This document shows positions 18,001 through 24,346 of a stretch of DNA of 64,000 nucleotides, piece after piece (the first letter of the stretch is position 1; every line of letters starts with the position of its first letter). A program made the translations under genes and the position numbers. Below the pieces are notes generated by a model. The model was not told the origin of the DNA and searched no databases. It saw only the letters and a list, made by a program, of their open reading frames with translations. Source of the DNA: Thermoanaerobaculia bacterium (GTDB lineage: Bacteria > Acidobacteriota > Thermoanaerobaculia > Multivoradales > UBA5704); NCBI GenBank assembly GCA_044866775.1, contig JBIOUG010000010.1, positions 9,052 through 73,051 of the forward strand. Direction: 5' to 3'.

Positions 18001-21000
18001 GGGCGCGACGCCGTTCATGGTGCTCCTCGCCGCGTTCCAGGCGCTGCTCTCGCGCCACAGCGGCGCCGAGGACGTCCCGGTCGGGACTCCGGTCGCCGGC
18101 CGCGGCGGCGAGACCGAAAAGCTGATCGGGCTCTTCGTCAACACCCTCGTCCTGCGCGGCGACCTCGCCGGCGATCCGTCGTTTGCGGCGCTCCTGGCGC
18201 GGGTGCGCGAGCGGGCCCTCGACGCCTTCGCCCATCAGGACCTGCCGTTCGCGATGCTGGTCGAGCGGCTGCGGCCGGAGCGGGCGCTCGCTCACTCGCC
18301 GCTCTTCCAGGTGATGTTCGTGCTCCAGAACGCGCCGCGCGGGATGGCGGCGATGGACGGCGTGCGGATCTCGACGTCCGACGTCCACACCGGCACGTCG
18401 AAGTTCGATCTCACCCTGGCGGTCGTCGAGCGGGCCGACGGCCGCCTCGCGGCGGTCCTCGAGCACAACCGCGATCTCTTCGACGCGACGACCGCCGAGC
18501 GGCTGCTGGCGCACTACCAGGAGGTGCTCGCGGCCGCGGCGGCCGATGCCGGCCGGCGGCTCTCCGAGCTGCCGTGGCTAACGGCGCCGGAGCGACACCA
18601 GCTCCTCGCGGAGTGGAACGACACCGCGCGGCGCTACGAGCCGGCCGCCTCGCGCGACGTCTCCCTCCACGAGCTGATCGCCCGCCAGGCGGTGCGGACA
18701 CCGGAGGCGGTGGCGATGGTCTACGAAGGCGCGCGCCTGACCTACGCCGAGCTGGCGGCGCGCGCCGGCGGGTTGGCGGGGTACTTGGCTTGGCTGGGCG
18801 TCGGACCGGAGTCGCTGGTCGGGGTGGCGATGGAGCGGTCGATCGAGATGGTGGTGGCGCTGCTCGCCGTGCTGGAGGCCGGGGCCGCATACGTACCGAT
18901 CGATCCCTCCTACCCGGCGGATCGCCTCGGCTTCATGCTGGACGACGCGCTGGCCGGCCAGGCGCGGCCGATCCTGCTCACCCAGGAGCACGTCGCCGCG
19001 ACCCTGCCGCTCGACGTGCTGCGCCGCCGCGGCGGGCAGGTGATCTGCCTGGACAGCGGCGCGCGCGACTTCGCGCCGGGCGCGGACACCGGTCGGGGCG
19101 CGACCGTGTCCGGCGACAGCCCGGCCTACATGATCTACACCTCGGGCTCGACCGGCCGGCCGAAAGGCGCGGTCAACACGCACCGCGCCATCGTCAACCG
19201 CCTGCTCTGGATGCAGGAGGCGTTCGATCTCGGGCCGGACGACCGCGTGCTCCAGAAGACGCCGTTCTCGTTCGACGTCTCGGTCTGGGAGTTCTTCTGG
19301 CCGCTGCTGGTCGGGGCGCGGCTGGTGGTCGCCAAGCCGGGCGGTCATCAGGACGCGCGTTACCTGGCGGAGCTGATCGAGGCCGAGGGCGTGACGGCCC
19401 TCCACTTCGTGCCGTCGATGCTGCAGGTCTTCCTGGGCGAGCCGGAGGCGGCGCGCTGCCGGTCGCTGCGGCGGGTCATCTGCAGTGGCGAGGCGCTGGC
19501 GCCCGAGCTCGTGGGGCGCTTCTTCGAGCGGATGGGCAACGGAGCGAGCGGCCCGGAGCTGCACAACCTCTACGGCCCGACCGAGGCGGCGGTGGACGTG
19601 ACCTGGTGGGCCTGCTCGCGGCGCGACGCCGGCGCCGGCGTGCCGATCGGCCGCCCGATCGCGAACATCGGGACCTGGATCGTTGACCGCGACCTGCGAT
19701 CGGCGGGGATCGGCGTCGCCGGCGAGCTGCTGCTGGGCGGCGTCGGTCTGGCGCGCGGCTACCACGCGCGTCCGGACTTGACCGCCGACCGCTTCGTACC
19801 CAACCCCTTCGCGGCGGCTGGCGGCGACGAGGGCTTCGGTCCGGGCTCCCGTCTCTACCGCACCGGCGACCTAGCGCGCGTGCGCGCCGACGGCGCGATC
19901 GAGTACCTCGGGCGGCTCGACCATCAGATCAAGCTGCGCGGGTTCCGCATCGAGCTCGGCGAGATCGAGGCGGCGCTGCTCGCGCACGCGGGTGTCCGCG
20001 AGGCGGTCGTGGTGGCGCGCGAGGAGCGCGGCGACAAGCGGCTCGTCGCCTATGTCGTGCCGGCCGGCGCGCGCGGCGACGACCTAGTCGCGACGCTGCG
20101 CACGCACCTGCGCGACCGGCTCCCCGAGTACATGGTGCCGTCGGCGTTCGTCCTCCTCGACGCGCTGCCGCTCTCACCGAACGCCAAGCTCGACCGCCGC
20201 GCCCTCCCCGCCCCCGGGCATTCGGCTGGGGCGGCAGGGGCGCCCGCGGCGGCCGCGCTGGCGCCGCGCAGCGCTGCCGAGGCGACGATCGCCGAGGTCT
20301 GGCGCCGCGTCCTGCGCCTCGACGCCGTGGGCGTCGAGGACAACTTCTTCGACCTGGGTGGGCACTCGCTCCTCGTCGTCGAGGTGCAGCGCGAGCTACG
20401 CCAGCGGTTCCCCGGGCGCGACCTGTCGGTCGTCGATCTCTTCCGCTATCCGACGATCGCCGCGGTCGCGGCGTACCTGGCGGGCGACGAGGGCCAGGCG
20501 GCGCCGGCCCAGGCTCCGACCGCCGACGCGGCGCCGGAGCCGGCGCTCGACGACGCGGTCGCCATCGTCGGCATGGCCGGCCGCTTCCCGGGCGCCGCGA
20601 GCGTCGCGGAGCTCTGGCGCCGCCTCTGCGCCGGCGAGGAGCTGGTCCGCAGCTTCAGCGAGGCGGAGCTCCTCGCCGCGGGCGTCGACCCGGAGCTCGT
20701 GGCCGACCCGTGCTACGTGCGGGTGCGCGGCGTCGTCGAGGGGGCGGACCTCTTCGACGCCCGCTTCTTCGACTGCCCGCCGCGCGAGGCGGAGCTGATC
20801 GATCCGCAGCAGCGCGTCTTCTTGGAGTGCGCCGTCGAGGCGCTCGAGGACGCCGGGCACGCGGGCGACCCGCCGGCGTGGCGCCCGCCACGCGTCGGCG
20901 TCTTCGCCGGGATGGGGGAGAATCGCTACGTCCTCAACCTCTACGCGAACCCGGCGCTGATGCGGGCGGTCGGCGCCTACCAGGTGGCGATCAGCAACAA

Positions 21001-24346: not shown

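Follow-up and report, generated by a model that had tools for sequence, protein, structure and literature searches.

Tandem paralogous NRPS lines of a Thermoanaerobaculia bacterium end in a non-reducing KS-AT-carrier-TE module of predicted malonyl type

The window, as we call the whole stretch of 64,000 nucleotides that was analyzed, carries two tandem NRPS-PKS lines (Table 1). Line 1 is encoded by ORF1. The first-pass annotation started this gene at position 20, but its frame can be read from base 2 onwards and enters an A domain part-way (position 74 of the Pfam profile), which means that the window edge truncates line 1. The visible modules of ORF1 are ..A(Gly-like)-T, C-A(Thr)-T-ST, C-A(code DPRNFVHRAK)-T, C-A(Ala)+MT-T, C-A(Gly-like)-T and C-A(Ser)-T, followed by KS-AT-carrier-TE (Pfam, Stachelhaus codes). 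Line 2 is divided between ORF2, where Pfam detected no starter C domain, and ORF3, which has the modules C-A(Ala)-T, C-A(Ser)-T, C-A(DPRNFVHQAK)-T, C-A(Ser)-T and KS-AT-carrier-TE. In the window, there are six A domains in line 2 and at least six in line 1. The Stachelhaus codes were read off an alignment to GrsA, and their residue assignments (Gly-like, Thr, Ala, Ser and Leu-like) follow published codes. Heterocyclization (Cy) domains before the Thr and Ser modules were considered and rejected, as their His motif proved on inspection to be the canonical HHIVTDDWS.

Table 1. Features of the two lines, with positions in the window.
Feature	Position	Strand	Description	Basis
ORF1 (line 1)	2..24346	+	NRPS-PKS, truncated 5' by the window edge	Pfam on tiles
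Sulfotransferase (ST) domain	5081-5932	+	CurM-like; inside an internal NRPS module of ORF1 (Thr module)	
Duplicated block	16807..24346	+	C-A(Ser)-T-KS-AT-CP-TE; collinear with 40583-48311	blastn
Last A domain, line 1	18680..20188	+	Code DVWHISLVDK (Ser-type)	Pfam, GrsA alignment
Last NRPS T domain, line 1	20285..20479	+	Putative peptide donor to KS; DNFFDLGGHSLL	
KS, line 1	20552..21691	+	Cys (TACSTS), His (HGTGT), His (NLGH)	PF00109 E=1.5e-70, PF02801 E=6.4e-43
KS-AT linker, line 1	21692..22150	+		PF16197, PF22621, PF22336
AT, line 1	22151..23005	+	GHSIG, HAFHS	PF00698 E=7.5e-59; residue-level alignments to PDB ATs
AT end, post-AT linker and spacer, line 1	23006..23377	+	Linker motif LPTYPFERRRYWV, then ~60-aa low-complexity spacer	
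Carrier, line 1	23378..23569	+	DDFFDLGGSSL	PF00550
TE, line 1	23678..24322	+	GASMGG, LFD, GDH	PF00975 E=1.6e-29
ORF2 (start of line 2)	24664..30780	+	A(Ser code)+FkbM-type MT-T-C-A(Leu-like)-T	
ORF3 (remainder of line 2)	30789..48311	+		Pfam, Stachelhaus codes
KS, line 2	44502..45641	+		Pfam, motifs
AT, line 2	46119..46967	+	GHSIG, HAFHS	Pfam
Carrier, line 2	47355..47546	+		Pfam, motif
TE, line 2	47643..48287	+		Pfam, motifs

The T-KS-AT-carrier-TE terminus was confirmed in both ORF1 and ORF3. Domain order and motifs (Pfam, both tails) agree with the earlier description of a reductive-domain-free KS-AT-ACP-TE at the end of each, and the starts that it gave, 20550 and 44500, fall within 2 nt of the KS starts. 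Both KS domains carry VQTACSTSL, EAHGTGT and KTNLGH, with the Cys-His-His triad present. The AT domains have GHSIG, the Arg in AARGRLM and HAFHS, and the TE domains have GASMGG, LFD and GDHASM. The carrier motif DDFFDLGGSSL of both tails includes the Ser that is predicted to accept phosphopantetheine. Structurally, the carrier-TE didomain finds its best PDB matches among NRPS T-TE units, AB3403 (4zxh) and EntF, and the carrier itself matches NRPS PCPs best. We do not regard a PCP-like carrier as a special trait of this tail, because GGxS is typical of the relatives, whether or not they carry extra domains.

Neither tail contains a KR (PF08659, adh_short), PS-DH, ADH_zinc_N or methyltransferase family at Pfam E<=1, and domain calling at this threshold thus sustained the absence of KR, DH and ER in both. 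From the post-AT linker motif to the carrier there are only about 60 low-complexity residues, a spacer far too short for a KR to fit between AT and carrier. The AT-to-carrier spacing is 345 nt, and relatives with extra domains have 1.5-2.9 kb more here. A cryptic KR was therefore rejected, given the lack of any SDR or KR family at E<=1 and of a Rossmann motif in a spacer of only ~60 aa. In the ORF1 tail, G.G..G matches only once, within a low-complexity insertion of the TE.

Both AT domains are predicted to be malonyl-type rather than methylmalonyl-type, as had been proposed; the prediction uses the motif code alone, with HAFH plus GHS[LVIFAM]G taken as the malonyl criterion, as opposed to YASH/GHSQG. 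In residue-level alignment, the GHSIG/HAFHS of both match the HAFHS-type ATs 8xju and 6iyo. The best PDB match of the AT on its own is ZmaA, and specificity for hydroxymalonyl-ACP was rejected, as ZmaA has GYSFG/GAAHS against GHSIG/HAFHS here. The last-module A codes, DVWHISLVDK and DVWHVSLVDK, are both Ser-type, and Ser is accordingly the predicted last amino acid of both lines. Taken together, these features support the view that, in each line, the last NRPS T domain is fused to a downstream non-reducing PKS module of malonyl type that is competent for condensation.

How are the two tails related to each other? The collinear block is about 7.5 kb long; its NRPS module DNA is 80-82% identical between the lines, and identity reaches 85.4% between 20119-24346 and 44096-48311 (blastn). 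In both tails dN/dS is 0.05-0.34 across domains, well below 1 in each, which indicates purifying selection. With tails 85% identical and both under such selection, the arrangement is a diverged duplication. The first-pass annotation was right that the module is present in both lines, but its recurrence reflects paralogous block duplication (80-85% nucleotide identity) and not convergence. Line 2 resembles a line 1 that lacks two modules and the ST domain, a likeness that, with the paralogy itself, would fit one line being a redundant or decaying duplicate without product. We consider such decay highly improbable, as the reading frames are unbroken over 24.3 kb and 17.5 kb, every catalytic motif is intact and dN/dS stays well below 1 in every domain.

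Among the 120 best database relatives, 59 carry KS-AT-carrier-TE without extra domains, and the earlier description of such a terminus as uncommon overstates its rarity. The closest relatives are three loci in Thermoanaerobaculia MAGs (L001-L003; proteins P0004, P0006, P0008 and P0045), with 51-59% amino acid identity along the whole tail. Their A-T-KS-AT-CP-TE spacing is the same, their ATs are also of the HAFHS type and their G+C content is similar (73-75%). They differ in having single lines rather than tandem paralogues, within the available DNA, and in their last A code, DLYDFSLVWK, which is not a Ser code; terminal Ser is thus not a family-wide character. None of the related clusters found is linked to a natural product.

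The arrangement and its tail logic are already characterized elsewhere, and no new biosynthetic principle is involved. The nearest characterized architecture is that of CorA, the coralinone synthetase of Corallococcus exiguus, with A-T-C-A-T-KS-AT-ACP-TE (PMC10979478). Its excised KS-AT-ACP-TE extends Leu-Val-SNAC with one malonyl-CoA and releases a beta-keto acid that decarboxylates spontaneously to a methyl ketone, and the dipeptide amino ketone of CorA cyclizes to a 5-methylpyrazinone (PMC10979478). Compared by architecture, both systems fuse an NRPS A-T straight onto a reductive-domain-free KS-AT-ACP-TE. However, CorA has two amino-acid modules against at least six here, where Ser is predicted last and there are two tandem paralogous lines.

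Variations on this logic are found in AntD of the antimycin pathway and in the synthetases of the epoxyketones and of matlystatin. AntD is a KS-AT-ACP-TE that relies on AntM, a discrete KR, for reduction of its ketone, and its TE macrolactonizes (PMC3869250). It is likewise a single terminal PKS module after an NRPS, with a TE end and no in-line reductive domains, but it is a separate protein with an AT that takes alkylmalonyl-CoAs, whereas here the AT motifs are of malonyl type and the window shows no KR gene. In the epoxyketone (EpxE/EpnH with EpxF/EpnF) and matlystatin (MatO/MatP with MatG) systems, the C-terminal residue and one malonate-derived unit give a decarboxylating beta-keto acid; matlystatin B arises by its spontaneous decarboxylation (PMC5719088). 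These modules differ in using a C-methyltransferase or methylmalonyl-CoA and in needing a conserved ACAD-like decarboxylase-dehydrogenase. Neither the C-methyltransferase nor a methylmalonyl-type AT occurs in the tails here, which lack an MT and whose ATs have HAFHS.

If the module works as its motifs suggest, then we can ask: What would it make, and how would the chain leave? Our preferred reading, to which we give roughly even odds (about 0.5), is that each line terminates in a functional type I PKS module of the non-reducing kind, which extends the peptide once before TE release, with hydrolysis as the favoured mode. The KS would accept the finished peptide, with its predicted last residue Ser, from the preceding T domain, while the AT would load malonyl-CoA onto the carrier. 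Decarboxylative Claisen condensation would then give a peptidyl-(4-amino-5-hydroxy-3-oxopentanoyl)-S-carrier, and with KR, DH, ER and MT all missing from the module, its beta-ketone would escape reduction. The NRPS-like C-terminal TE would release the chain, in the favoured mode by hydrolysis to a peptidyl beta-keto acid, which would lose CO2 spontaneously to leave a C-terminal methyl ketone, as in CorA. The first-pass annotation had arrived at a similar interpretation, and it is supported by the intact catalytic residues, the lack of room for a reductive domain, the purifying selection and the CorA and matlystatin precedents.

Hydrolysis is favoured by analogy, and the resemblance of the carrier-TE to NRPS T-TE units, including the cyclizing EntF, makes a cyclizing release equally compatible. 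After the same extension, the TE may macrocyclize the chain, with the N-terminal amine or a Ser/Thr hydroxyl attacking the acyl-TE to give a cyclic (depsi)peptide containing a gamma-amino-beta-keto acid. Besides the nearness to AB3403 and EntF, several Ser/Thr residues are predicted, and the N-terminal amine of line 2 would be free since this line opens with an A domain without a starter C. The AntD TE, too, macrolactonizes behind KS-AT-ACP-TE (PMC3869250). We nevertheless hold this outcome to be rather unlikely: CorA hydrolyzes, TE sequence has no predictive power for the outcome, and nucleophiles would be removed if one Ser is O-methylated and the Thr is sulfonated, as both may be.

The terminal Ser-malonate unit might instead cyclize on itself at release. 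Attack by the Ser hydroxyl would give a 5-acylamino-4-hydroxy-5,6-dihydropyran-2-one, and attack by the amide N an N-acyl 5-hydroxymethyl tetramic acid. Delta-hydroxy-beta-keto thioesters lactonize readily, N-acyl tetramate or pyrrolinone termini built from an amino acid and malonate are known from althiomycin and dolastatin 15, and both paralogues keep the Ser code in their last module. Such self-cyclization is nonetheless improbable in our estimate, as it lacks direct evidence, relatives with the same tail use another last residue, and neither the tail nor the downstream DNA has an enol-locking O-methyltransferase.

It is equally doubtful that a free-standing ketoreductase, AntM-like or F420-dependent and encoded beyond the window, reduces the beta-ketone in trans to leave a statine-like gamma-amino-beta-hydroxy acid end. 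The reliance of AntD, also a KS-AT-ACP-TE, on AntM (PMC3869250) speaks for it, and against it KR and SDR genes are absent from the 15.7 kb downstream and from the flanks of the three MAG loci. A discrete AntM-like KR or EpnF-like ACAD could lie upstream of ORF1, beyond the window. The 15.7 kb downstream (48.3-64 kb) also lacks genes for ACADs of the EpnF/EpxF/MatG kind and for O-methyltransferases, and neither class was found beside the three relatives. No promoter or terminator signal above shuffled expectation emerged from scans of the ORF1/ORF2 gap or of the DNA downstream of ORF3.

The main value of these results is in annotation and prioritization within an uncultured Thermoanaerobaculia-like lineage, where even the nearest relatives of the tail reach only 55-59% identity. 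The domain map may aid expression of the cluster or a metabolome search, in which two paralogous lines with Ser plus an unreduced malonate and an NRPS-like T-TE release would be expected. The predicted masses are those of chains with a beta-keto acid end or with a methyl ketone at -44 Da.

A bolder reading, which we regard as speculative and improbable, is that the tandem lines yield two related acidobacterial peptides whose C-terminus, built on the conserved Ser-malonate unit, is a new chemotype. This could be a 5-acylamino-dihydropyranone or a hydroxymethyl-tetramate; it could also be an electrophilic warhead in the form of an alpha-acylamino hydroxymethyl methyl ketone. Line 1 would add an ST-activated residue, its Thr beta-hydroxyl being sulfonated by the in-line CurM-like ST before elimination or displacement. 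If true, this would point to an as yet uncharacterized product family typical of Thermoanaerobaculia. In the tail, Pfam found no ST between carrier and TE, as CurM-type ST-TE off-loading has, and the sole ST is the one in the Thr module. This CurM-like domain embedded in ORF1 is a more unusual feature of the locus than the tail.

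The two assembly lines of the window, line 1 (ORF1) and its paralogue line 2 (ORF2 and ORF3), end in the same NRPS-PKS tail, KS-AT-carrier-TE. Pfam domain calling covered both tails and, in tiles, the whole of ORF1, ORF2 and ORF3. The KS domains start within 2 nt of the positions 20550 and 44500 proposed in the first-pass annotation. No KR, adh_short, PS-DH, ADH_zinc_N or methyltransferase family was detected in either tail (Pfam, E<=1), and in the translated sequence only about 60 Ala/Gly/Pro-rich residues lie between the post-AT linker 'LPTYPFERRRYWV' and the carrier; in relatives with extra domains the stretch between AT and carrier is longer by 1.5-2.9 kb. 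Both tails have intact motifs in KS (TACSTS, HGTGT, NLGH), AT (GHSIG, the Arg of AARGRLM, HAFHS), carrier (GGSS) and TE (GASMGG, LFD, GDH). The domain calls, the short spacer and the complete catalytic motifs thus fully confirm the first-pass annotation of a reductive-domain-free KS-AT-ACP-TE in ORF1 and ORF3: no cryptic KR was detected in either tail, and both ATs carry GHSIG/HAFHS rather than a methylmalonyl-type motif.

The domain order of ORF1 is ..A-T / C-A-T-ST / C-A-T / C-A(MT)-T / C-A-T / C-A-T / KS-AT-carrier-TE (ST, sulfotransferase; MT, methyltransferase), that of ORF2 is A(+FkbM-type MT)-T-C-A-T, and ORF3 has four C-A-T modules followed by KS-AT-carrier-TE. Read against GrsA, the A-domain codes of line 1 presumably specify ..Gly-like, Thr, a residue with DPRNFVHRAK, Ala (with MT), Gly-like and Ser; those of line 2 we take to specify Ser (FkbM-type MT), Leu-like, Ala, Ser, a residue with DPRNFVHQAK, and Ser. 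In both lines the KS is therefore predicted to receive peptidyl-Ser. The first A domain of ORF2 has the Ser code DVWHISLVD, and the FkbM-type MT after it may give an O-methyl-Ser starter; no starter C domain was found in the Pfam tiles of ORF2. The Methyltransf_12/25-type insert of the ORF1 Ala module, whose A domain has the code DLFNCALTY, is probably an N-methylation domain.

The established motif code predicts that the AT is a malonyl-CoA AT. Compared alone with solved structures, it best matched ZmaA, an enzyme that uses hydroxymalonyl-ACP. At the two diagnostic positions of the residue-level alignment ZmaA reads GYSFG and GAAHS, while GHS(I/L)G and HAFHS are common to the window ATs and the next structure matches, 8xju/8xjy and 6iyo. 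The carrier and TE best matched NRPS T-TE structures (AB3403, 4zxh, E=4e-33; EntF; PvdL PCPs), with far weaker matches to PKS/FAS thioesterases, and the off-loading unit is accordingly classed, by structural similarity, as peptide-synthetase-like. Carriers across this clade of modules generally show the GGxS motif, so it does not set this locus apart. We consider it probable (about 0.85) that each tail would perform a functional, malonyl-type, non-reducing extension of the peptide to a peptidyl beta-keto thioester, which the TE would release.

The terminal arrangement is already known in kind and is unsurprising to a specialist; the result annotates an orphan cluster correctly and usefully. 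CorA of coralinone biosynthesis is organized as A-T-C-A-T-KS-AT-ACP-TE. Once excised, its KS-AT-ACP-TE turns over Leu-Val-SNAC with malonyl-CoA; according to the authors of that study, a dipeptidyl beta-keto acid is released and then decarboxylates spontaneously (PMC10979478). In the epoxyketone and matlystatin lines the released beta-keto acids are processed by an ACAD-like enzyme, and matlystatin B forms by spontaneous decarboxylation (PMC5719088). AntD, itself KS-AT-ACP-TE, depends on AntM, a discrete KR, and has a TE that macrolactonises (PMC3869250). The logic of CorA is the closest of these to the window tails, although peptide length and last residue are different in the window lines, which moreover are two tandem paralogues. 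Hydrolysis and then decarboxylation to a methyl ketone has nearly even prospects here. Release by macrocyclisation, as by the AntD TE, appears rather unlikely, and the structure matches favour neither hydrolysis nor cyclisation. Self-cyclisation of a terminal Ser-malonate unit, which the predicted peptidyl-Ser would allow for, is improbable. Trans-reduction by a KR encoded elsewhere, for which AntM is the precedent, is an equally improbable course; no ketoreductase, acyl-CoA dehydrogenase or O-methyltransferase occurs among the genes 3' of ORF3 in the window.

How common is this architecture? The best 120 tail relatives from a 5.8-billion-protein collection include 59 with KS-AT-carrier-TE and nothing in between, nine of them preceded by a fused A or T domain, and 42 with extra domains. 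Among the best 80 genome loci, A-T-KS-AT-CP-TE (CP, carrier) with the same spacing was present in three Thermoanaerobaculia MAGs (L001-L003; 55-59% identical to the window tail, G+C 73-75%), the flanks of which contain no KR, ACAD or OMT. These loci and the related proteins P0004, P0006, P0008 and P0045 share a conserved, somewhat Cys-like last A-domain code, DLYDFSL(V/I)WK, which reads DLYDFSLVWK in L001-L003 and differs from that of the window. The shared code may point to a residue-plus-malonate terminus that recurs in Thermoanaerobaculia.

The two lines were compared by blastn. Identity is 85.4% over 4,261 nt (20119-24346 versus 44096-48311), 80-82% in the C-A-T module preceding the tail and 74-76% in two further upstream blocks; the blocks around the DPRNFVH-type A domains (5845-10734 versus 37587-42385) have 76% DNA identity. 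Line 2 looks like line 1 minus the ST domain and two modules, those for N-methyl-Ala and for a Gly-like residue. Between the tails dN/dS is 0.05-0.34 in every domain; selection thus maintains both copies. Carrier and TE are 98% and 94% identical in amino acids (dS 0.14 and 0.24), KS and AT 88% and 85% (dS 0.39 and 0.45). The lower dS of carrier and TE suggests gene conversion or later exchange at the 3' ends.

The window has a G+C content of 70-76%, and in its three long co-directional reading frames G+C is distributed over the codon positions as in real genes. ORF1 opens inside an A domain (..GAAYVPLDP.., Pfam position 74), its frame being open already at the first bases. The window edge thus truncates line 1, which is incomplete; a start at 20 is merely the first GTG, an edge artefact. 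The genes 3' of ORF3 resemble a housekeeping set of a Gram-negative organism, and MurJ has its best named relatives in Thermoanaerobaculia (Acidobacteriota; 60-66% identity). The product of the first gene after ORF3, 590 aa long, has a twin-arginine signal (RRQFLGG), PAP2/vanadium-haloperoxidase-like motifs (PSFPAGHA, GRSMIGIHFRAD) and weak Pfam matches (PAP2, E=0.009; TAT_signal, E=0.019).

Features of the two lines and of the neighbouring genes
Feature	Position	Strand	Remarks
ORF1	open from base 2 to 24346	+	frame runs into the window edge
ST domain	5081-5932	+	ORF1, between Thr-module T (about 4691-4885) and next C
A domain, DPRNFVHRAK	about 7454-8956		ORF1
Methyltransf_12/25-type domain	12362-12737	+	inserted in C-terminal part of ORF1 Ala-module A domain
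KS start, ORF1	20552		Pfam
Carrier-TE, ORF1	23378-24322
ORF2	24664-30780	+	reading frame
FkbM-family methyltransferase domain	26317-26886	+	ORF2 loading module, after first A domain; PF05050 E=7.9e-15
ORF3	30789-48311	+	reading frame
A domain, DPRNFVHQAK	about 39155-40676		ORF3
KS start, ORF3	44502		Pfam
Carrier-TE, ORF3	47355-48287
Tat-signal protein, weakly PAP2-like	48678-50447	+	first gene after ORF3
RlmL-like methyltransferase			downstream of ORF3
Sulfite-oxidase-like molybdopterin oxidoreductase	about 52491-53453	+	PF00174 E=2.8e-54, PF03404 E=2e-27
TerC, ApaG, glyoxalase, RNase D, MurJ			downstream of ORF3
TonB-dependent receptor, VWA protein			downstream of ORF3

The in-line ST of ORF1 looks more unusual than the tail. 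Its best PDB matches are the CurM ST (4gbm, E=3.7e-63) and an olefin-synthase ST (4gox, E=4.7e-59), 'activating' enzymes that turn a carrier-bound beta-hydroxyl into a leaving group by sulfonation; Thr on a T domain is a beta-hydroxyacyl thioester. In line 2 the paralogue of the Thr module is a Ser module and has no ST. There are 569 ST homologues at E<=1e-20, the named ones mostly from Thermoanaerobaculia, in arrangements that include T-ST-C and A-T-ST-TE. Because of this domain the sulfite-oxidase-like gene 4 kb 3' of the cluster deserves mention, although it is probably unrelated to it.
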